A stretch of 64,000 bases of DNA, taken from NCBI GenBank assembly GCA_041496545.1, contig JBGQET010000007.1, forward strand, positions 5,424 to 69,423. The letters run 5' to 3'. Each line of letters opens with the position of its first letter. Within the stretch, counting starts at the first letter, position 1. This stretch comes from Candidatus Binatia bacterium. GTDB lineage: Bacteria > Desulfobacterota > Binatia > DP-6. Position numbers and translations under genes: made by a program. Below, piece by piece: positions 7,876-21,752 of this stretch. The notes below the pieces were generated by a model. The model was not told the DNA's origin and made no database searches. It worked only from the letters and a program-made list of their open reading frames with translations.

Positions 7876-8925
7876 TCACGGGAAGGCGAGGCGCTTGCCG
7901 TGAGCCTTCACGCGAAAGTTGTCCGTCGAGCGCCCGAGCAGGCCGCCCGCGGCGTAGCTCGTCTGCACCGCGACGGGCGTGCCGGCGGGCGCGGGCAGCA
8001 CCGGGGCACGGAGCTTCACGGCGAGGAGGTAGTTGTCGATCTGGAAGCGACGGCGCACGAACCGCACGCCCATCGACAGGAGCCGATCGTCGCTGCTCGC
8101 CACGAACAGACGGCGGCCGCGCTGGCGGAGCCCGCCCAGCACCGCGCCGGCGCCGATCGTGACCCCGCCGGTGCTGGCGCGGAAGATCGCCGGCTTGCCG
8201 GGAAAGTCGAGGACTTCGTCGGGGTTCGGCGCGAAGAGCACCCTCATGGTCAAGGTTTTCGAGGTCACGCCCGCCGACACGACGACGGAGTCGGTGCTGC
8301 GACGGAACTGGTCCTTGTCGGGGACGGGTGTGGCCTGGCAGCTCGCGCGCACCACCAGCACGCCGCCGAGCGGCGACGGGAGCCCGCTCTGCTGGACGAC
8401 GCCGACGAGCGTGTAGCGGCCGTTGGCGTCCCGCGGCGAGCCCTCGAGGACGAGACCCGGCACCGCCGTGAGCCCCGTGGTGAGCGTCATCGGTAGGGTG
8501 AGCGCCGCGCCGCCGACCGTGAAGCCGAGCGGGAGGTCGGGGACGATGAACTCGCCGGTGCTGCCGCTGCGCGCGCCGGTGCTGCGCAAGAGCGCCACGA
8601 AGAAGCTCGGCAGCTCGAGCATGCTCGCGGTCCCGCCGGCGACGAACGGGCGCGCCGCGTCGGACTGCAGCGTGAACTGCGCGGTCTGATCCTGCATGTC
8701 GTAGGTGGTGTGCACGCCGTCGGGCGCGTTGGAGGGCGGGGCGGTCGCCGCGACGCCGCTGGCCGGGGCGTCGACCTCGAGGGGGTCGAAGGCGCACGTG
8801 CTGGGGAGCACGGGGACGTTGTGCGCCCCGGCCGCGCGTGCCGAGAGGAGCGCGGCCAGGACGAGGATCGAGCGCCGGAGCGCCATGATGGAGGTGAAGC
8901 TAGAAGCGCGCCGCGTACGACGCAA
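7876..8925 (-). CDS. Secreted hypothetical protein
   Basis: A signal peptide (MALRRSILVLAALLSARAAGA) is present from the alternative start at 8886. The gene sits first in the minus-strand operon 8925 to 4320. Confidence 0.6.
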   Translation of the reverse strand: MRRTRRASSFTSIMALRRSILVLAALLSARAAGAHNVPVLPSTCAFDPLEVDAPASGVAATAPPSNAPDGVHTTYDMQDQTAQFTLQSDAARPFVAGGTASMLELPSFFVALLRSTGARSGSTGEFIVPDLPLGFTVGGAALTLPMTLTTGLTAVPGLVLEGSPRDANGRYTLVGVVQQSGLPSPLGGVLVVRASCQATPVPDKDQFRRSTDSVVVSAGVTSKTLTMRVLFAPNPDEVLDFPGKPAIFRASTGGVTIGAGAVLGGLRQRGRRLFVASSDDRLLSMGVRFVRRRFQIDNYLLAVKLRAPVLPAPAGTPVAVQTSYAAGGLLGRSTDNFRVKAHGKRLAFP

Positions 8926-9407: not shown

Positions 9408-10334
9408 ATGCGAAATCGGATGGGCGCCGCGGGTGTGCTCGTCGTCTGCCTCGGGGCAGCGACGGCGCACGCTCACGGCGTCGTTGGAGAGCGATCGTTC
9501 ATCGAGCCATTCATCACCGAGGACGTGAACCCGAAGAACGAGTTCGTGATCGCACGACCGGAGTTCGATCATTCCCGCGACGGGAAGGAATTCTCGCTCG
9601 GCTTCGGCCTGGAGAAGAAGATATCGGATCGCTTCAGCCTCACGCTCGACTCGTCGTGGAACGACATCACCCCGAAGGCGGCGGACGAGCCGCACGCCAG
9701 CGGCTTCGGCAACCTCGGCCTCACCCTCAAGTACGCGTTCTTCATCAACCCGGCGCACGAGGCCATCGCCTCGTTCGCGATCGAGTCGACGGCGCCGACC
9801 GGCACCGCCGACGTCGGCGCGGAGCAGCGCGCGTCGTTCAAGCCCTTCGTGCTCTACGGCAAGGGCGCCGGCGACCTGCCGTCGTGCCTCAAGTACCTCC
9901 GCCCGCTCGCCGTGCAGGGCGACGCGGGCTTCGAGATCTCCCTCGACAACGACCGCACCACGACCCTCGTGCACAACGTCGCGATCCAGTACAGCATCCC
10001 GTACCTCCAGTCCGTCGTGCGCGACTTCGGCCTGCGCTGGCCGCTCAACAAACTGCTCCCCGTCGCCGAGTTCAACTTCGAGCACGGCGTGAACGGCGCG
10101 GAGCACGCCGTCCACAAGGTGACCACTACCCCGGGCATCGTCTACATGGACCGCTGGGTCGAGATCGGGATCGCGGGACGCTTCCCGCTCAACACCTCCG
10201 CGCACCGCGACCTCGACTGGGGCGTGATCGGCATCATCGACCTCTTCATCGACGACATCTTCCCGTGGTCCCGGTGGCAACCGATCGGTGGCATGGGGCT
10301 GCCGACGCCACCCGCCAACGAGCCAAAGTCGTGA
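9408..10334 (+). CDS. Secreted or outer-membrane protein, possibly an outer-membrane channel of the phenol-degradation (MetA-pathway) family
   Basis: It has a GGAAGGGG RBS and a signal peptide. Its stop overlaps the copC GTG start (GTGA). Confidence 0.6.
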   Translation: MRNRMGAAGVLVVCLGAATAHAHGVVGERSFIEPFITEDVNPKNEFVIARPEFDHSRDGKEFSLGFGLEKKISDRFSLTLDSSWNDITPKAADEPHASGFGNLGLTLKYAFFINPAHEAIASFAIESTAPTGTADVGAEQRASFKPFVLYGKGAGDLPSCLKYLRPLAVQGDAGFEISLDNDRTTTLVHNVAIQYSIPYLQSVVRDFGLRWPLNKLLPVAEFNFEHGVNGAEHAVHKVTTTPGIVYMDRWVEIGIAGRFPLNTSAHRDLDWGVIGIIDLFIDDIFPWSRWQPIGGMGLPTPPANEPKS

Positions 10335-10693
10335 AGCGCGGCGTCGCGGCGTTCGGTTTTCTCGTGGGTCTGCTCGCGCTCCGGCCGCCCCCGGCCGGAG
10401 CGCACGCCTTCCTCGACCACGCGGAGCCGCGGGTGGGGTCGAGCGTCGCGGCGCCTCCCACCCTGACGCTCGTCTTCACCGAGCCGGTCGAAGCCGGCTT
10501 CTCTCACCTCGCCCTCCGTGCGCCGGACGGCAAGCCGGTCGAGACGCCGGCGCTCGAGCAGCCGGCGCCGAACACGCTGCGTGTTGCGCTGCCGGCGCTC
10601 GCGCCGGGCGAGTACACCGTCGAGTGGGGCGTGGTCTCGGTCGACACGCATCCGACCGACGGCCGCTTCAACTTCTCCGTGAAGAAACCGTGA
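10331..10693 (+). CDS. copC: Copper resistance protein CopC (periplasmic copper chaperone)
   Basis: It has a signal peptide followed by the mature N-terminus HAFLDHAEP and a CopC-like beta-sandwich sequence. It is translationally coupled to both neighbours. Confidence 0.75.
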   Translation: MKRGVAAFGFLVGLLALRPPPAGAHAFLDHAEPRVGSSVAAPPTLTLVFTEPVEAGFSHLALRAPDGKPVETPALEQPAPNTLRVALPALAPGEYTVEWGVVSVDTHPTDGRFNFSVKKP

Positions 10694-11514
10694 ACGCGGC
10701 CTTCACGGTCACCGGCTGGCTCGACCTGGTGGCGACGGTGCTCCTCGCCGGCGGCCTCGTGTTCGCCGCGGCGGTCGCGACGCCCGCGGAAGCCGGCCGG
10801 CGGACGATGCGCGTGGCTGCCGACGCCCTCGCGCCGGTCCTCGTCGCGAGCTTCGCGCTGGTCGGCATCCGGATGCACGAGGTGGCGGGTGGCGAGGGCG
10901 TCGGATTCGTCGGCCGGCTCCTCGCCATGCACTGGGGGCGCTACTGGATCGGCCGCGCCGCCGGCCTCGTCGTGCTGCGCGTCGGGCTCGCGGCGGCGCG
11001 CCCGCGCTGGACCCTCCTCGCCGTCTTCGCCGTGCCGTGGCTCCTCCTGCGGAGCTCCCAGGGGCATGCGGGGGCGCACGGCACGGTGCCCGCGCTCGTC
11101 GACTGGGCGCACCTCGCGGGCGCCGCGGCGTGGCTCGGCGGTCTCGCGCAGATGGCGCTCCTCGCCGACGACGTGCCGGCCGCGGCGCGCCTGCGGCGCC
11201 TCGCGACGGCGGCGCTGGCGCTCGTCGTGCCCGCCGGCGTGTACGCGGCCTTCCTGCACGTCCCGAGCCTCGACCGGCTGCTGCACACGCCCTACGGGCA
11301 GACGCTCCTCGCGAAGCTCGCCCTGGTCGCCGTCCTCTTGACGCTCGGGGCCGCGAACCACTTCCGTCACGTGCCGGCGCTGGTCGCGGGGGACGCCGTT
11401 GCCGCCGTGCGGCTCCGGCGCACGGTGCGGATGGAGCTGGTGCTCGCCGCCGTGATCCTGCTGCTCAGCGCGCTCCTCGGCGTGCTGCCGATGCCGCACG
11501 AGCCGCCCTCGTGA
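10690..11514 (+). CDS. copD: Copper resistance protein CopD (inner-membrane copper transporter)
   Basis: It has eight predicted transmembrane helices with CopD family character. The GTG start overlaps the copC stop. Confidence 0.75.
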   Translation: MNAAFTVTGWLDLVATVLLAGGLVFAAAVATPAEAGRRTMRVAADALAPVLVASFALVGIRMHEVAGGEGVGFVGRLLAMHWGRYWIGRAAGLVVLRVGLAAARPRWTLLAVFAVPWLLLRSSQGHAGAHGTVPALVDWAHLAGAAAWLGGLAQMALLADDVPAAARLRRLATAALALVVPAGVYAAFLHVPSLDRLLHTPYGQTLLAKLALVAVLLTLGAANHFRHVPALVAGDAVAAVRLRRTVRMELVLAAVILLLSALLGVLPMPHEPPS

Positions 11515-11789
11515 GGCGACGCGCGCTTGCCGTCGTCCTGCTCGCGCTCGTCGCCTGCGGGCGCGACGTCGAGTACGTCGGCGCGGGCGAGGTGGTGTCC
11601 GTCGACGAGCCGCGGCTGCACGTGACGATCCGGCACGAGGACATTCCGGGGCTCATGGGCGCGATGACGATGCGCTTCGCGGTCGGCTCGCCCGACGTCC
11701 TGGCCGGCGTCGAGCCGGGGGCGCACGTCCGCTTCCGGTTGCGGCCCGCGGGCGGCGACTACGTCGTGACGCGGGTCGAGGCCCGCTGA
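11511..11789 (+). CDS. CusF-like periplasmic copper-binding lipoprotein
   Basis: It has a lipobox (LALVACG) and an H…M.M.F motif (IRHEDIPGLMGAMTMRF). The GTG start overlaps the copD stop. Confidence 0.65.
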   Translation: MRRRALAVVLLALVACGRDVEYVGAGEVVSVDEPRLHVTIRHEDIPGLMGAMTMRFAVGSPDVLAGVEPGAHVRFRLRPAGGDYVVTRVEAR

Positions 11790-11790
11790 G

Positions 11791-12492
11791 TCAGCGGCGG
11801 CGCAGCGAGTCGATGTACGCCACCAGGTCCCAGAGCTGCGGCGGCTCGAGGGCGTCGGCGTACGACGGCATGGGCGTGCCGTCGAGGCCGGTCACCAGCG
11901 AGCGGTAGACGTCGGCGGGCGCGCCGCCGTTCTTGAAGCGGGTGGGGAGGCGGAGGTCGGCGGGCAGGATGCGGAGCCCCGTCTCGTCCTTGAGCTGCTT
12001 CGCCGAGCCGCCGTCGCCGCGGCCGCGGTCGCCGTGGCAGGACGGGCAGCCGGCGCTCTCGTAGAGGTCGCGGCCGCGCGACGCCGCCGCGGCGTCGAGC
12101 GGCGGCGCCTCGGGGAGGGCGATGGGCGTGGGCGTCGCGCTCGCGAAGCCGGGGTAGAAGCGCTTCACGGCGGTGATCGCGAGGCGGCGCTCGCCCGCCG
12201 TGAGCCCGATGAAGGACGGCATGTAGCCCGGGATGCCGCGCTCGAGGGTGCGCAGGATATCCGCGTCGGTCGGCAATTGCCCGCTCGGCGTCGAGCGGAG
12301 CTTGAAGCGGCCGCGGGTGAAGTCGCGCGGGCGCGGCGACAGGTACTTGTTGATCGAGAAGTACGCGGGCCCGTCGCCGCGCCCGTCCTTGCCGTGGCAC
12401 CACGCGCAGGCGTGGTTGTAGACGGCGGTCGCGTCGTCGGCCGCGACGGCCGGGGCGGCGAGCGCGAGGACGAGGAGGACGGCCGTTCGCAT
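11791..12492 (-). CDS. Di-heme cytochrome c
   Basis: It has a signal peptide and two CxxCH motifs (CAWCH, CPSCH). Confidence 0.8.
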   Translation of the reverse strand: MRTAVLLVLALAAPAVAADDATAVYNHACAWCHGKDGRGDGPAYFSINKYLSPRPRDFTRGRFKLRSTPSGQLPTDADILRTLERGIPGYMPSFIGLTAGERRLAITAVKRFYPGFASATPTPIALPEAPPLDAAAASRGRDLYESAGCPSCHGDRGRGDGGSAKQLKDETGLRILPADLRLPTRFKNGGAPADVYRSLVTGLDGTPMPSYADALEPPQLWDLVAYIDSLRRR

Positions 12493-12494
12493 CG

Positions 12495-14123
12495 TCAGAG
12501 CGCGAAGTCGAAGCCGAGGAAGAGACCGTTCCGCCAGTTGCCGAAGGGGTGGCTGCCGCCCGGCGTGAGGTTGACGCTGTCGCGCAGCGAGAGGCTCAGG
12601 AGGGCGGGGATCGGGACCCTAGCCAGATTGTCGCCCTCGAAGACGTACCAGCGCATCTGGAGGTGCAGCACCTGCGACTGCCGCGGGCCCGGCTCGAAGA
12701 CGACGTCGCTCTTGAAGCCGCCGGCGCTCATCCAGTCGTAGCGCACCGACGGCACGAGCGAGTGCGTGAGGCGGTAGTCCACCTCCGCGGTGAGCCCGTC
12801 GGCGCGTCGCTTGAAGCGCCCGGCGAGGCGCGACGGGACGTTGAAGACCTGGTCGTGCATGTAGGCGCCGTAGGTGTCCCACGGGCCGCGGCGCAGGTTC
12901 CAGCCGACGCCCTGGCGGGAGACATCGAGGTCGCGTTGGTTCGTGATCGTGCCGACGCCGAGCGGCGGTGGCGGGCGGTGCTGCGTGACGGGGCCGCCGA
13001 AGTCGCCGAGCGGGATCGACGGCAGCGGCGCCGGCGAGAGGTAGAACACGCGGTACGCCTCCCAGCCGTAGTTGCCGAGCACGGAGACCGAGCCGGTCAG
13101 GCCGTCGCGGTCGCCGAAGTCCCAGCGCAGCATGCCGTACGGCACGGCGGTGTGCAGCCCGTCGGTGAACTCGGGTGCCGCGCCGGTCGTCGTGCCGAGC
13201 TGGTAGAGGAGGTGGGAGGCGAAGAGGCGGCCGTGGAGGTCGAGGCCGGGCGCGGCCTCGGCGTGGTAGAGGGTCGGCTCGGTGGCGAGGAGCGTGTGGT
13301 CGCCGCGCTTGAAGATGCCGAAGAACTTGGCGCCGAAGGCGTAGGGGTTGAGCGGCATGCGGAGGAGGAAGCCGGACTCCGAGGTATCGGCCGGCACGTC
13401 GTGGAAGAGCTGGCGGTCGACGGCGTAGGAGAAGTTGGTCGAGGGGTCGATGCGACCGAACATGATCATGGGGCCGTGACCGACGAGGCCGTCGCCCATG
13501 GTCGCCATGCCGTGCCCGCCGTGGTCCATGTCTCCCATGTCGTGGCCCATCTGCTCGTGGTCCATGTGGGCCATGTCGTGTCCGCCGTGGCCGTGGAGGC
13601 CGAGCAGCATGGGGACGTCGACCATGACGAACGCCTTCTGCATGCCGCCCGTGTTGCTGTTCACGAAGTCGCCGCGCTTGTTGATGTCGGTCTCGTGGAC
13701 GGTGTGCTCGAGCTCGATGAAGAGGCTCGTCGAGGGCGTGAGCGGACCCGCGATGTAGACGCTCGTGTGCTCGGGGACGGCGAAGCCGCCCCGCGAGCCC
13801 GGCGCGTCGTCGAACTGCGAGCGCTCGAACCACTCGCCCCGCGTCCAGATCGCCATGCCCTTGGTGAGCGCGTCCTTCCACGTCGACGGGAACGGCGTCC
13901 ACATCGTGCCCGGCGGCTTGAAGCCGTTCATGTGGAACTCCTCGCCGTAGGCGTTGAGGCGCGGAACGGCGGAGTGGCAGACCCCGCAGGCGAGGTTGTA
14001 GCGACGGGCGAAGGCGGGTAGCGCCGCCGCCGAACGCGCCGTGACGAGGAGAGCGACAAGAGCGAGCAGGCGGCGCGCGAGCATCGGTCGCGCCCGTATA
14101 CCGGCCCGTGCCCCCGGGCTCAA
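12495..14123 (-). CDS. Secreted CxxCH-containing protein with a Met/His-rich copper-binding-like region and a beta-barrel-like C-terminus
   Basis: It has a signal peptide, a CGVCH motif and the tract HGHGGHDMAHMDHEQMGHDMGDMDHGGHGM. The C-terminus is rich in aromatic/Gly strands. Confidence 0.7.
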   Translation of the reverse strand: MSPGARAGIRARPMLARRLLALVALLVTARSAAALPAFARRYNLACGVCHSAVPRLNAYGEEFHMNGFKPPGTMWTPFPSTWKDALTKGMAIWTRGEWFERSQFDDAPGSRGGFAVPEHTSVYIAGPLTPSTSLFIELEHTVHETDINKRGDFVNSNTGGMQKAFVMVDVPMLLGLHGHGGHDMAHMDHEQMGHDMGDMDHGGHGMATMGDGLVGHGPMIMFGRIDPSTNFSYAVDRQLFHDVPADTSESGFLLRMPLNPYAFGAKFFGIFKRGDHTLLATEPTLYHAEAAPGLDLHGRLFASHLLYQLGTTTGAAPEFTDGLHTAVPYGMLRWDFGDRDGLTGSVSVLGNYGWEAYRVFYLSPAPLPSIPLGDFGGPVTQHRPPPPLGVGTITNQRDLDVSRQGVGWNLRRGPWDTYGAYMHDQVFNVPSRLAGRFKRRADGLTAEVDYRLTHSLVPSVRYDWMSAGGFKSDVVFEPGPRQSQVLHLQMRWYVFEGDNLARVPIPALLSLSLRDSVNLTPGGSHPFGNWRNGLFLGFDFAL

Positions 14124-14238: not shown

Positions 14239-14898
14239 GTGGAGGCGACCTTCTGCTTCGTCGATCTCGCCGGCTTCACGGCCCTGACGGAAGCGCACGG
14301 GGATCAGGCGGCGGCGGACCTCGCGCTCGCCTTCGGCAGGCTCGTCGAGCAGGCGCTCCAGGGAGCGGGCCAGGTCGTCGACACCGTCGGAGACGCCGTG
14401 TTCGTGGTGGCCGAGCGGCCGGCGGAAGCGGTGCGGTTCGTCGGCCGGCTCTTCGACCGAGCAGCGACGGAGCCCGATTTCCCCGCCCTCCGTGTCGGCC
14501 TGCACCACGGCGAGGCGGTGGTGCGGAACGACCGGTACTTCGGCACCTCGGTGAACCTTGCGGCACGCGTCGCGTCGCAGGCCGGCGGGGACGAGATCCT
14601 CGCCACCCGCGGGGTCGCGGAGGCGGCACGAGCGGTCGGGATCGACGCCACGTCCCGCGGCACCGTCGCGCTCCGGAACATCCTCGAGCCCGTCGAGCTC
14701 TTCGTCCTGGCGATCGGACGGTTCCCCGAAACCGTGATCGACCCGGTCTGCCGCATGCGCGTGGAGCGGAACGGGGCCGCCGGCCGCCTGCGCTTCCAGG
14801 GCACGGAGTACTTCTTCTGCTCGCTCGACTGCACGGCGCGCTTCGCCGCCCGCCCCGCGGCGTACGCGGCGGGCGAGGCGCCGGCCTCCAGGTCTTGA
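14239..14898 (+). CDS. Nucleotidyl cyclase (class III cyclase homology domain) fused to a C-terminal YHS/TRASH metal-binding domain
   Basis: The cyclase part reads FCFVDLAGFTALTE…TVGDAVFVV…GLHHGEAV…FGTSVNLAARV. The C-terminus reads DPVCRMRV…YFFCSLDC. The start is uncertain, and the GTG at 14239 is the best candidate. Confidence 0.65.
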   Translation: MEATFCFVDLAGFTALTEAHGDQAAADLALAFGRLVEQALQGAGQVVDTVGDAVFVVAERPAEAVRFVGRLFDRAATEPDFPALRVGLHHGEAVVRNDRYFGTSVNLAARVASQAGGDEILATRGVAEAARAVGIDATSRGTVALRNILEPVELFVLAIGRFPETVIDPVCRMRVERNGAAGRLRFQGTEYFFCSLDCTARFAARPAAYAAGEAPASRS

Positions 14899-14971
14899 CG
14901 TCGAGCGCGTCCTCCGCGAGATACGGGCACGGTTATTGGATGCCCAGCTAGCAAGCCAAGGAGGGGAACGC

Positions 14972-15334
14972 ATGACGAGGAGAAAGATCAGGACGCTCGC
15001 GCTGGTCGCCGTGATGGCGACCGGCTTGGCCCTGCCCAACTTCCGGGCAGCCGTTGCCGATGAAATGAACATCGAGCAGCGAATCTCCACCGCGAAGACG
15101 GCCGCGGATCACGAAGCCATCGCCGCGTACTACGAGGAGCAGGCGAAGGCGGCGCGCGCGAAGGGCGAGGAGCACAAGCGGATGTCGGCCGATTACAGGA
15201 AGGCCGGCGGTTCCATGGCGAAGAGCCAGCTGCCCGAGCATTGCAACGGTCTGGCGGTGATCTACAGCGGTGCCGCGAAGCAGTACGACGCCCTCGCTGC
15301 GATGCATCGTAAGATGGCCAAAGCGGCGAAGTAG
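14972..15334 (+). CDS. Small secreted hypothetical protein
   Basis: An AAGGAGGGG RBS precedes the start, and a signal peptide is present (RTLALVAVMATGLALP). Confidence 0.55.
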   Translation: MTRRKIRTLALVAVMATGLALPNFRAAVADEMNIEQRISTAKTAADHEAIAAYYEEQAKAARAKGEEHKRMSADYRKAGGSMAKSQLPEHCNGLAVIYSGAAKQYDALAAMHRKMAKAAK

Positions 15335-15521
15335 GCGCGGCACTGCCGAGGTCGCGGGCCGTGAGGCGGCGACCCCGGACGGGATACCCCCGGGGTCCGT
15401 TCGCTCGGTCGCCCGTGGGAACCGGTCTGCGTCTGCCTTCTCAGTAATGGGAACGCCGGCTGCGGAGACGCACTCTTTGCCTCGGGCACGGTTTGTGCCA
15501 AATGGGCGAAGCGAGGATTGC

Positions 15522-15944
15522 ATGTCCGCGCTCACTCGGATGTTCCGCCGCTCGCGCACCTTGGTGGCGCTCCTCCTCGGCGTCTTGGTGCCGTACGTGT
15601 CGACTCGCTGCCTCCCCGGCTGCACGGTCGTGCACGGCGCCGCCGCGCATCATCATGCAGCGGTGACGCACGAGCGAGGCGGGGTGCATCGGCATGCGGC
15701 CCACGATGCCGAGCGTCCCGCGGATGCGGGGCATGACCACGACCAGCCGAGCTGCTGCCAAGTCACCGGAAAGCTCGCCGTCACGGTCCCGTCTCCCGCC
15801 GCAGGCATGGCGGGCCCGCTGCTGCGACCGGCCCTCCGGGTCGCGCCGACAGGACGTCTCTCAGCCGGCCGCACGCTCCCCCCGCCAGAATTCCTCGCGC
15901 ACGGTCCACCCGTCTACCTCCTCCACGCGACTCTCGTGATCTGA
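15522..15944 (+). CDS. His-rich exported protein upstream of the efflux operon, putative metal-binding
   Basis: It has a signal peptide and then AAHHHAAVTHERGGVHRHAAHDAERPADAGHDHD…CC. Confidence 0.5.
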   Translation: MSALTRMFRRSRTLVALLLGVLVPYVSTRCLPGCTVVHGAAAHHHAAVTHERGGVHRHAAHDAERPADAGHDHDQPSCCQVTGKLAVTVPSPAAGMAGPLLRPALRVAPTGRLSAGRTLPPPEFLAHGPPVYLLHATLVI

Positions 15945-16085
15945 TCCCCCGCCGCGCCCACCCGTGGAACGAGGTGGCGATGCGCCTGCGAGCCACCGGC
16001 GCTCCTCGGGGAGGGTCGTCGCGCCGGCGCCCATGCGGGCGTCTGCCCCCGACCGTGCGAACGGCAGGCGAGGGATGGGAGAGAC

Positions 16086-17426
16086 ATGAGGGCCAGGAGA
16101 TCGGAGACACGCGAGGTGCCGGCGAGCCGGCTCCGCCCGCTCCACGTCGGCAAGCGGCCGGCGCTCGTCGTCTGTGCGCTCGCGTGCATGACCGCGAGCG
16201 CGACGCGCCTCGCGCGCGCGGAGGAGGGGCGCCCGACGCTCGCGTCGCTGCTCGAGACCGCGCGGGTCCAGAACGCCGAGATCCGGGCGGCGGAGGCGCG
16301 CTACCAGGCGATGCGCCAGCGTCCCGTCCAGGAGCGCACGCTGCCCGACCCGACCATCGGCGCCCGGTATCACAACGAGAAGACGGACCGCCTCACGCTC
16401 GGTGAGTCCGACTTCTCGTTCCTCGAGTTCTCCGCCGAGCAGGAGGTGCCGTTCCCCGGCAAGCTCGGGCTCCGCGGCGACGTCGCGGCGCGCGAGGCCG
16501 ATCGTGAACGGGCGATGCGTGACGAGACCGTCCTCATGGTCCTCGCCAAGGTCGCGGGCGGCTACGCCGACCTGGCGGCCGTGGACCGCACCAGGACCGC
16601 ACTCGAGCAGAGCGCCGCTACCCTCGACCTCATGGTGCGGCAGGCGGGCGAGAGCTACGGCGTCGGCACGGTGGCGCAGGCCGACGTCCTCCGCGCGACG
16701 CTCGAACGCGCCGCGATCGAGGAGCGGCTCACCATGCTCACCCAGAAGCGGGTCGCCGCCGAAGCGACGCTGAACGTGCTGCTGGCGCGCCCGGCGGCCG
16801 AGCGCGTCGGGCCCGTCGCGCTGCCGGCGACGGTGCCGCCCCTCGAGACGCTGGAGGCCTGGGGGCGGCGCGTTCAGGACGAGGCGCCCGCCGTGCGGGC
16901 GGCACGCGAGGACGTGCTCCGGGCCGGCGCCGCGCTGAAGCTCGCCGAGCGCGAGTACTTTCCCGACTTCGCGCTGATGGGCGGATACACCGATAAGAGT
17001 CGGCTCTTGCCGGAGTGGGAATTCGGCGTTCGCGTGCGTGTTCCGCTCTACTTCTGGCGGCGCCAGGGCCCGGCGGTCGCCGAAGCCGTCCACAACCGGA
17101 CGGCGGCCGAGGAGACGCGCCGGAACACCGCGCTCACGCTCGACGGCCGCCTCCGCGAGCTGCACGCCATGGCCGAGTCCGGGCAGCGGCTCGTCGCGCT
17201 CTACCGCGACACGCTCATCCCGCAGGCGTCGCTCACGCTCGAGTCGACGCGCGCCTCCTACGTAGTCGGCCGCGTCGATTTCCTGACCATGCTGACCGCG
17301 TTCACGAGCCTCCTCGAGTACCGCATTCGGTACGCGGAGACGATGGGGAGCCTCTACCGCGCCCGCGCCGAGATCGGGCCGCTCGTCGGCGAGAGCCCAC
17401 TCGACTGGTGGAAGGAGTCGCCGTGA
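16086..17426 (+). CDS. cusC: TolC-family outer-membrane efflux protein (CusC-like)
   Basis: It has outer-membrane factor coiled-coil repeats. Its stop overlaps the start of the next gene. Confidence 0.8.
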   Translation: MRARRSETREVPASRLRPLHVGKRPALVVCALACMTASATRLARAEEGRPTLASLLETARVQNAEIRAAEARYQAMRQRPVQERTLPDPTIGARYHNEKTDRLTLGESDFSFLEFSAEQEVPFPGKLGLRGDVAAREADRERAMRDETVLMVLAKVAGGYADLAAVDRTRTALEQSAATLDLMVRQAGESYGVGTVAQADVLRATLERAAIEERLTMLTQKRVAAEATLNVLLARPAAERVGPVALPATVPPLETLEAWGRRVQDEAPAVRAAREDVLRAGAALKLAEREYFPDFALMGGYTDKSRLLPEWEFGVRVRVPLYFWRRQGPAVAEAVHNRTAAEETRRNTALTLDGRLRELHAMAESGQRLVALYRDTLIPQASLTLESTRASYVVGRVDFLTMLTAFTSLLEYRIRYAETMGSLYRARAEIGPLVGESPLDWWKESP

Positions 17427-18544
17427 TGCGCACGCTCGCGACGGTGATTCTGGCCGGCGCCGTCACGTGCGCGGCCGCGGCGGAGATCCCGTCGCACGGG
17501 GCGCACGCGGCGCACGAGGGCGCGCAGGTGGCGGTCCCCGGGATGGCCGAGGTCGAGGTGCCCGTCGAGCGCCGGCAGGCGATCGGGGTGCGGACGGCGG
17601 AGGTTGCCCGGCGCACGCTCACGCAGGGCGTTCGCACCGTGGGTCTCGTCGCCGCGGACGAGCGCCGCGTGCGCCGCATCCAGACGAAGGTCTCCGGATG
17701 GGTCGACGAGCTGCTCGTCGCCTACACCGGCGCGCTCGTGAAGGCGGGCGAGCCCATCCTCTCGATCTACAGCCCGGAGCTGGTCGCCGCGCAGCGTGAG
17801 TATCTCCTCGCCCGCCGGGCGGGTGGAGCCGCCGGGGGCTCGAGCGGCCTGCTCGTGCAGTCGGCGCGGATGCGGCTCAGGAACTGGGACCTGACCGACG
17901 CGCAGATCGAGGCGCTCGGGAGGAGCGGGGAGCCGAGGCGCTCGGTCGTCCTCCACTCGCCCATCGCCGGCTACGTGACGCTCAAGCCGGTGACGCAGGG
18001 CATGTACGTGACGCCCGAGATGGAGCTCTACCGCATCACCGACCTCGACGCCGTCTGGATCTGGGCCGATCTCTACGAGAGCGAGATCGAGCTCGTGGCG
18101 ATCGGGCAGACGGCGGCGATCTCGCTCGCGTCGGCTCCCGGACGCACCTTCACCGCCGTGGTGGCGTACGTGAGCCCCACGATGGAGCCCGCCACCCGCA
18201 CGCTCCGCGTGCGCTTCGACATCGACAACCGTGGCCACCCCCTCAAGCCGGGCATGTACGCGACCGTCGTCCTCGAAGCGCCGCTCGGCGAGGTGCTCGC
18301 GCTCCCGGAAGAAGCCGTCATCGACACGGGCGAGCGTCGCGTGGTCTTCGTCGAGACGGCGCCGGGCCGCTTCCAGCCACGCGAGGTCGAGCTCGGCCGC
18401 ACGGGCGAGGGCCACTACGAGGTGCTCGGCGGCCTCGAGGCGGGCGAGCGGGTGGTGGTGAGCGCGCAGTTCCTGCTCGACTCCGAGAGCCGGCTCCGCG
18501 CCGCCGGCCGCGGCCCGGCGCACGCGGGGCACGGAGGCCAGTGA
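17426..18544 (+). CDS. cusB: RND efflux membrane fusion protein (CusB-like)
   Basis: It has the periplasmic adaptor architecture (beta-barrel and lipoyl-like regions). Confidence 0.8.
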   Translation: MRTLATVILAGAVTCAAAAEIPSHGAHAAHEGAQVAVPGMAEVEVPVERRQAIGVRTAEVARRTLTQGVRTVGLVAADERRVRRIQTKVSGWVDELLVAYTGALVKAGEPILSIYSPELVAAQREYLLARRAGGAAGGSSGLLVQSARMRLRNWDLTDAQIEALGRSGEPRRSVVLHSPIAGYVTLKPVTQGMYVTPEMELYRITDLDAVWIWADLYESEIELVAIGQTAAISLASAPGRTFTAVVAYVSPTMEPATRTLRVRFDIDNRGHPLKPGMYATVVLEAPLGEVLALPEEAVIDTGERRVVFVETAPGRFQPREVELGRTGEGHYEVLGGLEAGERVVVSAQFLLDSESRLRAAGRGPAHAGHGGQ

Positions 18545-18548
18545 GGCG

Positions 18549-21500
18549 ATGGAACGGCTGATCGAGTTCTGCGGCCGCCGGCGCGCGCTCGTCTTCCTGG
18601 CGACGGGCCTCTTCGTAGCGTGGGGCGTCTGGGCCATTCGGCGGACGCCCGTCGACGCCCTGCCCGACCTCTCCGACACGCAGGTCATCGTCTTCACCGA
18701 GTGGATGGGCCGCAGCCCGAACCTCGTCGAGGACCAGATCACTTACCCGATCGTCACCACCTTCCTCGCCGCGCCCCACGTGAAGGTCGTCCGCGGCTTC
18801 ACGATGTTCGGCATGTCCTTCGTCTACATCGTCTTCGAGGACGGGACGGACATCTACTGGGCGCGGAGCCGAACGCTCGAGTACCTCGTGAAGCTCCAGG
18901 GACGCCTCCCGCCCGGCGTCACGCCCCAGATCGGGCCCGATGCGACCGGCCTCGGCTGGGTCTTCGAGTACGCGCTGGTCGACGACACCGGCCAGCACGA
19001 CCTCCAGCAGCTCCGGAGCTTCCAGGACTGGTACCTCCGGTACTGGCTCTCCTCCGTCCCGGGCGTCGCCGAGGTCGCCGGCGTCGGCGGGTACGAGAAG
19101 GAATACCAGATCGAGCTCGACCCGGTGCGGCTCCAGGCCTTCAACGTGTCGATCGGCGACATCGTGCAGGCCGTGCGGATGTCGAACGGCGACGTCGGCG
19201 GGCGGGTGATCGAGCTGGCGGAGCACGAGTACGCCGTGCGCGGCCGCGGCTACATCCAGTCCCGCGACGACCTGGCGAGCATCGCGGTCACGACGAACGC
19301 GGCCGGCACGCCGGTCCGGCTCGGCGACCTGGCGCGGATCCAGGTCGGCGGGGCGATCCGCCGCGGTTTCGCCGAGCTGGACGGACTCGGCGAGACGGTG
19401 GGCGGGATCGTCGTCATGCGCTTCGGCGAGAACGCGCTCGACGTGATCGAGCGGGTGAAGGCGAAGCTCGAGGAGATGAAGGCCGCCTTCCCGCCGGGCG
19501 TCCGGATCGTCACCACGTACGACCGCTCGGATCTCATCCGCGCCTCGGTGGCGACGCTCCGCGACAACCTCGTGCAGGTCATGGTCGTCGTGTGTCTCAC
19601 CGTCGTCGTCTTCCTCTTCCACGTGCGCTCCGCGCTCGTCCCGGCGATCACGCTGCCGGTCGCCGTCGTCCTCTCGTTCATCCCGATGGCCTACATGGGC
19701 CTCACCACCAACATCATGTCGCTGGCGGGGATCATCATCGCGGTCGGCGACATGGTCGACGCGGCCGTCGTGCTGGTGGAGAACGCCCACAAACGCCTCG
19801 AGCACGCGGGCCCCGACGCCGACCGCACGGCGGTCGTGATCGGCGCCGCCAAGGAGCTCGGCCCGCCGATCTTCGGGTCGCTCCTCGTCATCACGATTGC
19901 CTTCCTCCCGGTCTTCACGCTCCAGGCGCAGGAGGGCCGGCTCTTCAAGCCGCTCGCGTACACGAAGACCTTCTCGATGGCGTTCGCCTCCGTGCTCTCG
20001 GTGACGCTCGTCCCCGCGCTCATGGTGACCTTCGTGCGCGGCCGCATCCGCCCGGAGCGGGAGAACCCCGTGAACCGGGCCGTCATGGCCGCCTATCGGC
20101 CCGTGCTGCGCTTCTGCCTCGAGCGGCGGCGGCTCCTGATCGCGGCCGTCGTGCTCGCGCTCGGCGTCACGGTGGTGCCGTTCTTTCGGCTGGGCTCGGA
20201 GTTCATGCCGCCGCTCTACGAGGGTTCGCTTCTGTTCATGCCGATCACCGTCCCGGGCATCTCGATCGAGGAGGCGAAGCGCCTCGTCCAGGAGCAGGAC
20301 CGCCGGCTGAAGGAGTTCCCGGAGGTGGAGACGGTCTTCGGCAAGGCAGGCCGCGCCGAGACGCCGACCGACCCGGCGCCGCTCTCGATGATCGAGACCG
20401 TGGTGGCGTTGAAGCCGCGCACGGCGTGGCGGCCGGGCATGACGTGGGAGCGGCTCGTCCGCGAGATGGACGCCGCCGTCGCCATGCCGGGGCTCCAGGC
20501 GGCGTGGACGATGCCGATCAAGGCGCGGGTCGACATGCTGACGACCGGCATCCGCACGCCCGTCGGCGTCAAGGTCTTCGGCCCCGACCTCGAGGAGATC
20601 GCCCGCGTCGGCGAGTCGCTCGAGAACATCCTGCGCGACGTGCCCGGCACGCGATCGGTGTACGCGGAGCGGGAGCTCGGCGGCTTCTTCATCGACTTCG
20701 TCCCGGACCGGGCCGCGATCGCGCGCTACGGGCTTCGCCTGATGGACGTCATGAACGTCGTCGAGACGGCGATCGGAGGGCTCGACATCGACACCACCAT
20801 CGAGGGCCGCGAGCGCTACCGGGTGAATGTCCGCTACCCGCGCGAGCTGCGCGACACGCCCGAGGAGCTGGCGCGCGTGCTCGTGCCCATTCCCGCGCAG
20901 TCGGGCGGGCTCGGGCCCGCGAACGAAGGTCCCATGGACGGGACGCCGCGTCCCGGCGCCGACGCCATGAGCGGGGGACGCGTCGCGCACGTCCGCCTCG
21001 GGCAGCTCGGCCGGATCACCGCCGCCATGGGCCCCCCGATGATCAAGGACGAGGGCGGGTCGCTCACCGGCTGGGTCTACGTGGACACGTCGCGCAGCGA
21101 CCTCGGCGGCTACGTCGCGGAGGCGAAGCGCGCCGTCGCGCGTGAGCTCCGGCTGAAGCCCGGCTACTACCTCCGCTGGACGGGCACCTACGAGTTCCTC
21201 GAGCGGATGCAGGCGCGGATGCGGATCGTGATCCCGCTCACGGTGGGGATCATCCTGGCGATCCTCTTCGTGAACTTCGGCGGGCTCGCGCAGGCGCTGC
21301 TCGTGCTGTTCTCGGTGCCCTGCGCGGCGATGGGCTCGATCTGGCTCCTGTGGCTCCTTGGCTTCAATACGTCGGTGGCCGTGTGGGTCGGCATGATCGC
21401 GCTCCTCGGCGTTGCGGCCGAGACCGCCTCGATCATGGTGATCTACCTCGACGAGGGCTACGCGCGCTGGCAGGCCGACGGCCGCATCCACACCACGCGC

Positions 21501-21752
21501 GACCTGATCGAGATGGCGATGGAGTCCGCGGTGCTCCGCGTCCGTCCGCTCCTCATGACCGTCGCGATGAACATCTTCGGGCTCATCCCGGTCATGTTCG
21601 ACACCGGCATCGGCTCCGACGTCGCGAAGCGGATCGCCGCGCCGCTCTGGGGTGGCCTCGTCTCGCTCACGCTGCTGACGCTCGCCGTGATCCCGGCCCT
21701 GTACGTGATTTGGCGCGAGCGGCAGCTCCGCCACGCGGAGGCACGGCCGTGA
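18549..21752 (+). CDS. cusA: Heavy-metal efflux RND transporter, CusA/CzcA family
   Basis: It is 1067 aa. The N-terminal 400 aa are collinear with and very similar to E. coli CusA (…PVDALPDLSD.QVI…GPDATG.GW.FEYALVD…). Confidence 0.9.
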   Translation: MERLIEFCGRRRALVFLATGLFVAWGVWAIRRTPVDALPDLSDTQVIVFTEWMGRSPNLVEDQITYPIVTTFLAAPHVKVVRGFTMFGMSFVYIVFEDGTDIYWARSRTLEYLVKLQGRLPPGVTPQIGPDATGLGWVFEYALVDDTGQHDLQQLRSFQDWYLRYWLSSVPGVAEVAGVGGYEKEYQIELDPVRLQAFNVSIGDIVQAVRMSNGDVGGRVIELAEHEYAVRGRGYIQSRDDLASIAVTTNAAGTPVRLGDLARIQVGGAIRRGFAELDGLGETVGGIVVMRFGENALDVIERVKAKLEEMKAAFPPGVRIVTTYDRSDLIRASVATLRDNLVQVMVVVCLTVVVFLFHVRSALVPAITLPVAVVLSFIPMAYMGLTTNIMSLAGIIIAVGDMVDAAVVLVENAHKRLEHAGPDADRTAVVIGAAKELGPPIFGSLLVITIAFLPVFTLQAQEGRLFKPLAYTKTFSMAFASVLSVTLVPALMVTFVRGRIRPERENPVNRAVMAAYRPVLRFCLERRRLLIAAVVLALGVTVVPFFRLGSEFMPPLYEGSLLFMPITVPGISIEEAKRLVQEQDRRLKEFPEVETVFGKAGRAETPTDPAPLSMIETVVALKPRTAWRPGMTWERLVREMDAAVAMPGLQAAWTMPIKARVDMLTTGIRTPVGVKVFGPDLEEIARVGESLENILRDVPGTRSVYAERELGGFFIDFVPDRAAIARYGLRLMDVMNVVETAIGGLDIDTTIEGRERYRVNVRYPRELRDTPEELARVLVPIPAQSGGLGPANEGPMDGTPRPGADAMSGGRVAHVRLGQLGRITAAMGPPMIKDEGGSLTGWVYVDTSRSDLGGYVAEAKRAVARELRLKPGYYLRWTGTYEFLERMQARMRIVIPLTVGIILAILFVNFGGLAQALLVLFSVPCAAMGSIWLLWLLGFNTSVAVWVGMIALLGVAAETASIMVIYLDEGYARWQADGRIHTTRDLIEMAMESAVLRVRPLLMTVAMNIFGLIPVMFDTGIGSDVAKRIAAPLWGGLVSLTLLTLAVIPALYVIWRERQLRHAEARP

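Follow-up and report, generated by a model that had tools for sequence, protein, structure and literature searches.

The 64,000-nucleotide stretch of DNA analysed here (the window; all positions are counted from its first letter) comes from a Candidatus Binatia bacterium and has a GC content of approximately 72%. On its minus strand, at 12495–14123, lies an open reading frame (ORF) for a putative outer-membrane protein that combines a monohaem cytochrome with a porin. It is followed by the gene of a dihaem cytochrome c, and copper-related genes lie on both sides. The ORF has a coding-type composition, with GC fractions of 0.67, 0.48 and 0.95 at the first, second and third codon positions, and homologues were found in ~90 database clusters. 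The open frame extends upstream to a TTG at 14123; however, translation probably starts at the ATG at 14084 (MLARR...), since homologues begin at an equivalent MxxRR and the database copy has 529 amino acids, the length obtained from this ATG. The ORF list, the homologue N-termini, the third-position GC content and the start-site sequence together place the gene at 12495–14084. The database copy (P0003) served as the first sequence in the alignments and models. It differs from the window protein at residue 238 only, which is G in the window, in agreement with the family consensus, and C in P0003. Residues 1–21 (MLARRLLALVALLVTARSAAA; 14022–14084, minus strand) read as a signal peptide with a charged n-region, a hydrophobic core and AAA ahead of the conserved LPAFAR, a layout common to all homologues.

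Residues 21–43 (13956–14024, minus strand) form the block A-L-P-A-F-A-R-R-Y-NLA-CGVCH-SAV-P-R-L, delimited by the alignment of 43 sequences and the published definition of the Cyc2 motif. The sole CxxCH of the protein is CGVCH (residues 33–37). A21, P23, A24, R27, C33, C36, H37, P41 and L43 were invariant in the 43 aligned relatives, and the block A-[LI]-P-A-F-[AS]-R-x-x-x-L-x-C-x-x-C-H-x-x-x-P-x-L-N-x-[FY]-G was invariant in close and distant homologues alike. A haem motif near the N-terminus had been noticed in an earlier reading made from the letters of the window alone (the sequence-only reading), and the invariance of C33, C36 and H37 bears this out; the haem would be attached covalently at this site.

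Cyc2 proteins are diagnosed by AxPxFAR[Q/K][T/Y] upstream of the CxxCH and by PxL four residues downstream of it (Keffer et al. 2021, PMC8406198). Further criteria are a signal peptide, a single haem motif, a length of at least 365 amino acids and a 16-strand OprO/OprP-like barrel (Keffer et al. 2021, PMC8406198). The protein has a predicted signal peptide and one N-terminal CxxCH, a single CxxCH being found likewise in 60 of 60 full-length motif-bearing representatives. ALPAFARRY is separated by three residues from CGVCH, which is followed by SAV and PRL, and the 529 amino acids include 16 strands in the second AlphaFold2 model (model 2) described below. At the Q/K position the target has R, a conservative change; within its subfamily, Nitrospirota members have K there and L014 has Q, and R occurs in 14 of the 97 motif-bearing representatives of the wider family. 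By every sequence and architecture criterion tested, the protein is a Cyc2-family fused cytochrome–porin. The assignment draws on the published criteria for motif and architecture, and on relatives named as Nitrospirota and Troglogloeales, rather than on alignment to a reference Cyc2 sequence. The hybrid described in the sequence-only reading is not new: a monohaem cytochrome fused to a porin is what defines Cyc2.

The C-terminal part of the protein, which had been read as amphipathic beta strands, was modelled as a 16-strand porin barrel (residues 77–528, C-terminus GFDFAL; 12501–13856, minus strand) on the evidence of model 2, Foldseek and the table of strands and connectors. An outer-membrane-type C-terminal F was found in 87 of 94 relatives. 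A first AlphaFold2 model, built from 19 sequences, had a predicted template modelling score (pTM) of 0.69 and folded the C-terminal 450 residues into a beta-barrel. Model 2, built from 43 sequences, reached a pTM of 0.78 and a mean predicted local distance difference test score (pLDDT) of 73.6 and showed 16 membrane strands. With both models Foldseek matched 16-strand porins (E 5e-11 to 1e-10); the top matches of model 2 were OmpK35 (5e-11), Omp38 and, at rank 3, OprP (2o4v), and OprO (4rjw) stood at rank 48. For Cyc2, the templates given in the literature are OprP and OprO (Keffer et al. 2021, PMC8406198).

The side of the membrane was assigned from strand parity and connector lengths in unrelaxed, haem-free AlphaFold2 models, with connectors numbered on the assumption of a periplasmic C-terminus, as in all porins. 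The even-numbered connectors T1 and T3–T6 have 2–5 residues and T7 has 12; among the odd-numbered ones, L1 and L2 have 6 and 5 residues and L3–L8 have 11–65. In the model these lengths fit the usual porin pattern, in which periplasmic turns are short and external loops long. The conserved connector of strands 5 and 6 (residues 213–277; 13254–13448, minus strand; model 2 and the 43-sequence alignment) takes the position of the constriction loop L3 of classical porins. Its residues 231–270 have mean pLDDT values of 78–90 per ten-residue block and contain no membrane strands, and P214, S215, S219, R224, R242, A249, F255 and G256 are among its invariant residues.

The comparison of the protein with PcoB/CopB and MtrB-type proteins in the sequence-only reading did not hold. 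Neither Pfam nor NCBIfam, including the CopB and MtrB_PioB profiles, gave a match for the target at E ≤ 0.1, a PDB sequence search was also empty, and nine other family members were likewise without an NCBIfam match; Pfam and NCBIfam contain no curated Cyc2 model. It is hardly credible that the ORF encodes a PcoB/CopB- or MtrB-type protein or that it is non-functional and its Met/His tract low-complexity noise. The resemblance is a general one, the model has 16 strands with an internal haem domain instead of 26 strands around a decahaem partner, and ~90 conserved homologues together with the strong codon bias argue against noise. Profile searches, homologues, tract conservation and the barrel model refute both candidates.

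A profile search of 1.84 billion representatives returned 3,940 related clusters. Most of them have 390–470 amino acids and align over the first ~130 residues only, and 46 reach E ≤ 1e-30, which marks a distinct full-length subfamily inside a very large family. Its close clade (73–77% identity) consists of soil metagenome-assembled genomes (MAGs) recorded as Candidatus Binatia and 'Deltaproteobacteria'. The clade at 28–32% identity includes Nitrospirota (Nitrospira among them), Candidatus Troglogloeales, Tectomicrobia and Chromatiales. In the taxonomic family of the window's organism the orthologue is patchy (7 of 25 genomes), as expected for an accessory island gene. The homologues of Nitrospira and Ca. 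Manganitrophus are labelled 'cluster 3' Cyc2 in the literature, and the 28–32% identity to proteins of such MAGs makes a cluster 3 placement probable for the window protein too. The function of cluster 3 Cyc2 (iron, manganese or other) in Nitrospira, Ca. Manganitrophus and many non-iron-oxidisers is called unresolved in the literature and acknowledged there as an open question.

A tract rich in methionine and histidine (HGHGG...GHGPM, residues 164–206; 13467–13595, minus strand) lies within the 49-residue connector of strands 4 and 5, as recognised from composition, conservation and model 2. In this tract, HGHGGHDMAHMDHEQMGHDMGDMDHGGHGMATMGDGLVGHGPM, 17 of 43 residues are Met or His, as against 6.0% in the remainder of the protein (binomial p = 1.4e-10); the average over the ORFs of the window is 4.0%. 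The densest 40-residue segment of the target holds 16 Met and His, and the runner-up among the representatives of the wider family holds 10. All ~60 full-length close homologues keep the tract (29–51 amino acids with 4–10 Met and 5–9 His), its length and sequence being variable. A degenerate 36-nucleotide repeat in the tract DNA (13518–13596) suggests that slippage has lengthened and shortened the tract while selection acted on its composition. The sequence-only reading, which took the tract for a copper-binding region, was right about its presence, and the composition kept in close homologues speaks against noise. That reading was to be dropped if no barrel were predicted and the tract were noise absent from homologues, or if the CxxCH were not conserved; the models predict a barrel, the CxxCH does not vary among the aligned relatives, and the close clade keeps the tract composition.

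In model 2 the pLDDT is below 50 at residues 167–171 and 173–201, i.e., the tract is predicted to be disordered. On the model's topology it would be an expanded periplasmic turn, T2, and would leave the barrel at the same rim as the haem domain, whatever the absolute orientation, because four confident strands lie between them. Other Cyc2-family members (P0218, P0174, P0183, P0152) were seen to have barrel connectors with HGDEGDE repeats or with His/Glu-rich or pure Met-rich stretches (MPMAMQMAMPGNLMFMNGLMLM). Connector loops may tune the Cyc2 family to different metals.

The stop codon of the porin gene is separated by a 2-nucleotide spacer from the ATG of the dihaem cytochrome c gene (233 amino acids; 11791–12492, minus strand; Pfam PF13442/PF00034 twice), and, judged from this spacing, the two genes are translationally coupled. 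The operon link noticed in the sequence-only reading was conserved. A tblastn search of all loci placed an orthologue (40–76% identity) directly downstream in every full-length relative with downstream sequence, over five phyla or classes and including a marine relative (P0102). The partner (P0002) matched chain B of PDB entry 6H5L, a Kuenenia stuttgartiensis HAO-like enzyme, over its full length (E = 1e-43). This chain is the small dihaem redox partner that was co-crystallised with that octahaem enzyme; on this basis the dihaem cytochrome c would be a soluble periplasmic carrier docking on a larger haem protein.

The position of the tract within this pair of proteins varied among the clades. 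In the distant clades the equivalent porin connector is shorter (21–34 residues) and mildly Met-rich, and the partner dihaem cytochrome opens with a Met/His/Asp-rich arm directly after its signal peptide. Nitrospirota and the marine relative have an arm of 'QEMDHS[TSK]M...' repeats (in L023, 84 residues that include 20 Met and 3 His), and in Chromatiales the arm is His/Asp-rich. The Binatia partner has no arm, its mature end being ADDATAVYNHACAWCH. In Pseudomonas syringae, CopA and CopB bind copper through repeats of the MDHSxM type. In a third clade (P0092-94, P0103; 36–40% identical to the target) neither protein carries a tract, and on three independent contigs of this clade the neighbours are TetR- and lactonase-type genes, with no copper genes. 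Tracts on porin and partner were negatively correlated (Spearman -0.49), a value that reflects a few clades and not independent points. These comparisons assign the tract to the two-protein system and not to one protein, and its presence tracks the copper context. As the arm-bearing dihaem cytochrome is a soluble exported protein, the tract would be periplasmic. As a separate observation, the partners in L016 (9479–10846, Tectomicrobia) and L014 (7499–8758, an unclassified MAG) carry three CxxCH motifs each, and their His/Glu/Lys-rich N-terminal arm is far longer, with 112 residues in L016.

Alternatively, the tract might act only as a sponge for periplasmic metal, in the manner of PcoE/SilE, or as an arm on which a chaperone docks, with the redox module serving another substrate (another metal or an organic donor). 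Its predicted disorder and its variable length and sequence would suit this explanation, as would the quite different His/Asp/Glu repeats of other Cyc2 members; however, the constant presence of the tract on one of the redox partners and its correlation with copper genes are left unexplained. We regard such a role as improbable.

The gene context was computed for the window and for the relatives. Downstream of the dihaem cytochrome gene, a convergent copper cluster on the plus strand (9408–11789) encodes an outer-membrane protein (9408–10334), CopC (~10320–10693), CopD (10690–11514) and a CusF-like protein (11511–11789), with Pfam matches to CopD and CusF_Ec. The set of outer-membrane protein, CopC and CopD accompanies the orthologue in the Binatia loci L003, L009, L011 and L012 in varying order and orientation. 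The window CopC, as read from its translation, begins with His behind its signal peptide and lacks methionine altogether, which suggests the Cu(II)-only type. Upstream of the porin gene, a divergent copper island on the plus strand (14239–21752) comprises a YHS-domain nucleotide cyclase (Pfam Guanylate_cyc and YHS), a small His-rich protein (15522–15944) and cusC, cusB and cusA, identified from ORF translations. CusA and CusB relatives were found by tblastn in loci L027–L031.

For the distant clades, 129 neighbour ORFs of 21 loci were compared with Pfam, the neighbours in MAGs being called by a crude longest-ORF rule. The commonest families apart from cytochromes were YHS (6), E1-E2 ATPase (5), HMBD (4), MerR (4) and ACR_tran (3). 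The ATPases combine CPC and DKTGT with an N-terminal YHS domain, features that characterise copper-exporting P1B pumps. By tblastn and clustering, 11 of the 21 loci have a P1B-type pump, a YHS protein or CusA within ~5 kb. In L026 (2629–9687) an apparent single operon comprises a divergent merR, a small His/Cys protein, the cyc2-like gene, the dihaem cytochrome c gene, a second merR, a His-tailed cytochrome c and a YHS-CPC ATPase, all genes after the first merR being on one strand. Its divergent intergenic region contains a perfect 8-nucleotide inverted repeat, CTTAAACC-N9-GGTTTAAG, which does not lie between promoter hexamers. A MerR-type operator was also sought upstream of the module in L021, where nothing comparable to the L026 repeat was present, and in the window, where only short GC-rich inverted repeats were seen.

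Some further proteins occur beside the module. A gene for a conserved secreted protein of 330 amino acids ('up349'; 7876–8925, minus strand) was traced by tblastn synteny in L003, L009, L010, L011 and L012. In four of the five other Binatia contigs its position is directly behind the dihaem cytochrome gene, and in L003 it stands after that gene, at the end of the cluster. It had no Pfam or PDB match, its predicted mature end starts with His (AAG|AHNVP), and it is probably a third gene of the module. A family of small (115–140 amino acids), membrane-anchored His/Cys-rich proteins without a Pfam match ends in a conserved LYxLHAxxLI. The window copy (15522–15944, plus strand) lies upstream of cusC, and in nine Nitrospirota loci (L017, L021, L023–L026, L028, L030, L031) the family is encoded directly upstream of the cyc2-like gene. 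Between the module and the copper ATPase, L023 (11932–12555), L026 (6585–7229) and L031 (12771–13403) encode monohaem cytochromes c that are membrane-anchored and end in long His/Asp/Glu-rich tails (e.g., GHSHGDGEDPHNEGGHGDMESDEHHHDE).

The sequence-only reading had proposed an outer-membrane copper oxidoreductase or uptake protein. The conserved copper gene context backs such a role; the copper function itself we infer. In the uptake version, the porin would admit copper, and either the haem, fed by the dihaem cytochrome c, would reduce Cu(II) to Cu(I) or the tract would select copper, with CopC and CopD carrying it inward to copper enzymes. Met motifs also mark the Ctr1-type Cu(I) importers, the Cu(II)-only CopC type is linked to import, and the window CopC, with its N-terminal His and no Met, is of the corresponding kind. 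The constant companions in Binatia are CopC and CopD and not pumps; on the other hand, the module of the distant clades is found in operons with, or in the vicinity of, genes for export and detoxification (CPC-type ATPases, CusCBA and MerR-type regulators), and the window module itself faces a cusCBA island and a CusF-like gene. Moreover, the modelled tract would be periplasmic, whereas a filter for uptake ought to sit at the outer mouth. An uptake gate therefore seems a rather poor candidate, if a slightly better one than the sponge or docking arm.

A contrast to the copper-island gene was found inside the same genome. A second Cyc2 paralogue (G000:C79; L041 1997–3481, minus strand; also L008) has 495 amino acids and a more canonical motif, AVPSYARQT-ALP-CEGCH. 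Its neighbours, in a divergent cluster, encode a monohaem cytochrome c, an FAD/FeS flavoprotein oxidoreductase, a cytochrome b and a multihaem cytochrome c, with no copper genes, i.e., a respiratory context.

This paralogue bears on the possibility that the copper-island protein is an ordinary Cyc2 Fe(II) or Mn(II) oxidase. The metal would then enter through the pore and be oxidised at the haem, electrons would pass via the dihaem cytochrome c to an oxidase for energy, and the tract and the copper genes would be incidental to a general metal island. The pairing of Cyc2 with a dihaem cytochrome recalls cyc2-cyc1 of the Acidithiobacillus rus operon, but a Cyc2 in a respiratory setting is already present in the genome. 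Although all tested family members oxidise Fe(II), soft-ligand Met/His tracts are unlike Fe(II) or Mn(II) sites, and the association with copper recurs over clades with 28–32% identity. The tract shifts between the partners, and its absence coincides with the absence of copper genes. Relatives occur in Troglogloeales and Nitrospira, where Cyc2 was proposed for Mn or Fe oxidation, but it is for Nitrospira and cluster 3 that the literature leaves the function undecided. On balance we consider an iron or manganese oxidase unlikely at this locus.

The explanation we favour, with about an even chance of being correct, is that the cytochrome–porin and the dihaem cytochrome c form a haem-based periplasmic copper-handling module, probably a Cu(I) oxidase, directed to copper rather than iron. 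Periplasmic Cu(I) would arrive from the cytoplasm via P1B-type pumps or leak in from outside. The flexible Met/His tract, at the periplasmic rim of the barrel beside the haem domain, would capture it; in other clades the capture would fall to the tract on the N-terminus of the dihaem partner. The Cyc2 haem would oxidise Cu(I) to the less toxic Cu(II), and the electron would travel via the dihaem cytochrome c to a terminal oxidase. Cu(II) would exit via the pore or be bound by the Met-free CopC with its N-terminal His, apparently of the Cu(II) type. The pair might in this way perform the job of the CopA/PcoA multicopper oxidase and the CopB/PcoB outer-membrane protein. The Cu(II)/Cu(I) couple lies near +0.15 V, below many c-type haems. 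Reported Cyc2 potentials range from -130 mV to +208 mV, the upper value being that of the Cyc2 of strain PV-1 (PMC8406198 for PV-1). Considered against these potentials, Cu(I) oxidation by the Cyc2 haem is thermodynamically plausible.

Several observations weigh against this explanation. CopC and CopD are widely viewed as importers, which fits uptake as well as detoxification, and Met/His tracts bind Ag, Ni and Zn too or may serve as a mere metal sponge. Ten of the 21 distant loci have no pump or regulator gene within ~5 kb, and P0102, from the marine relative, has an FTR1-type iron permease nearby and no copper genes. A periplasmic turn of 49 residues is unusual for a porin, and the orientation comes from the unrelaxed, haem-free models. 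The multicopper oxidase domain PF07732 is present in 37 of 61 related genomes, and it occurs in 5 of the 7 related genomes with the orthologue and in 13 of the 18 without it, so that no complementary pattern emerged. The genome of the window (G000, estimated 99.4% complete) contains no PF07732. Finally, every biochemically tested Cyc2 oxidises Fe(II) (PMC8406198). The simple replacement of a multicopper oxidase by the module was considered separately and is unsupported, as orthologue carriers mostly have PF07732 (5/7).

No publication connecting a Cyc2 with copper genes or with Binatia, or describing a moving Met/His arm, was found in the literature searched. The pairing with a dihaem cytochrome in all full-length relatives, the copper-gene context and the switching of the tract between the partners are new. 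More tentatively, the whole branch of Cyc2 paired with a Kustc0457-like dihaem cytochrome c (Binatia, Nitrospira, relatives of Ca. Manganitrophus, Tectomicrobia, Chromatiales and marine bacteria) could be a haem-based cuprous oxidase system and not an iron or manganese oxidase; we lean against so broad a claim, though not strongly. For one large branch the locus offers a concrete and testable answer to the cluster 3 question. If the proposal is true, a haem-dependent Cu(I) oxidase would be a second, non-multicopper-oxidase route of periplasmic Cu(I) detoxification, electrons from Cu(I) might feed respiration, and the way in which bacteria without a multicopper oxidase, such as the organism of the window, cope with Cu(I) would be explained. 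Cyc2 is widely used as a marker gene of neutrophilic iron oxidation, by FeGenie and others. Metagenomic cyc2 matches would then be an unsafe marker of this process, and many functional calls in soil, groundwater and sand filters would be corrected.

Among known systems, MtrCAB, MtoAB and PioAB share with the module an outer-membrane barrel and a c-type cytochrome moving electrons across or at the outer membrane. Their 26-strand barrel sheathes a separate decahaem protein (PMC8406198), whereas the target has a single haem fused to a 16-strand barrel, a two-haem partner and no match to Pfam MtrB_PioB. With CopA/PcoA and CopB/PcoB of the cop/pco operons the module has in common the operon partnership with CopC and CopD, Met/His/Asp repeats of the MDHxM type and the proposed job, periplasmic Cu(I) oxidation and passage of copper across or to the outer membrane. 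Unlike them, the target has neither a Cu-oxidase nor a CopB domain and no relationship in sequence or fold, and its redox centre would be haem, not copper. The resemblance to CopB is one of tract composition only. The cupredoxin Cu-oxidase domain of the multicopper oxidases (CueO/CopA/PcoA) is absent from the target, so that the likeness to them is functional only and hypothetical; moreover, the module and multicopper oxidases show no mutual exclusion across genomes.

Like chain B of 6H5L, the partner P0002 appears to be a small soluble two-haem carrier docking on a larger haem enzyme; the enzyme and the organism are different, and the Nitrospirota-type homologues add the Met/His N-terminal arm. 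The target is closest in architecture to the Cyc2 family itself (Acidithiobacillus ferrooxidans Cyc2, Mariprofundus Cyc2PV-1, Ghiorsea Cyc2TAG1, Leptospirillum Cyt572), with which it shares the signal peptide, the single CxxCH, AxPxFAR[Q/K/R]Y, PxL, a length of >365 amino acids, the 16-strand OprP/OmpF-like barrel and an adjoining gene for a periplasmic c-type cytochrome. Only the N-terminal ~130 residues align with most members. The target is longer (529 amino acids versus a median of ~450), has R at the Q/K position and is modelled with a 49-residue Met/His-rich periplasmic turn and a Pro-rich 30-residue loop. It differs further in its obligatory Kustc0457-like dihaem partner and in a context of copper genes rather than respiratory or iron genes.

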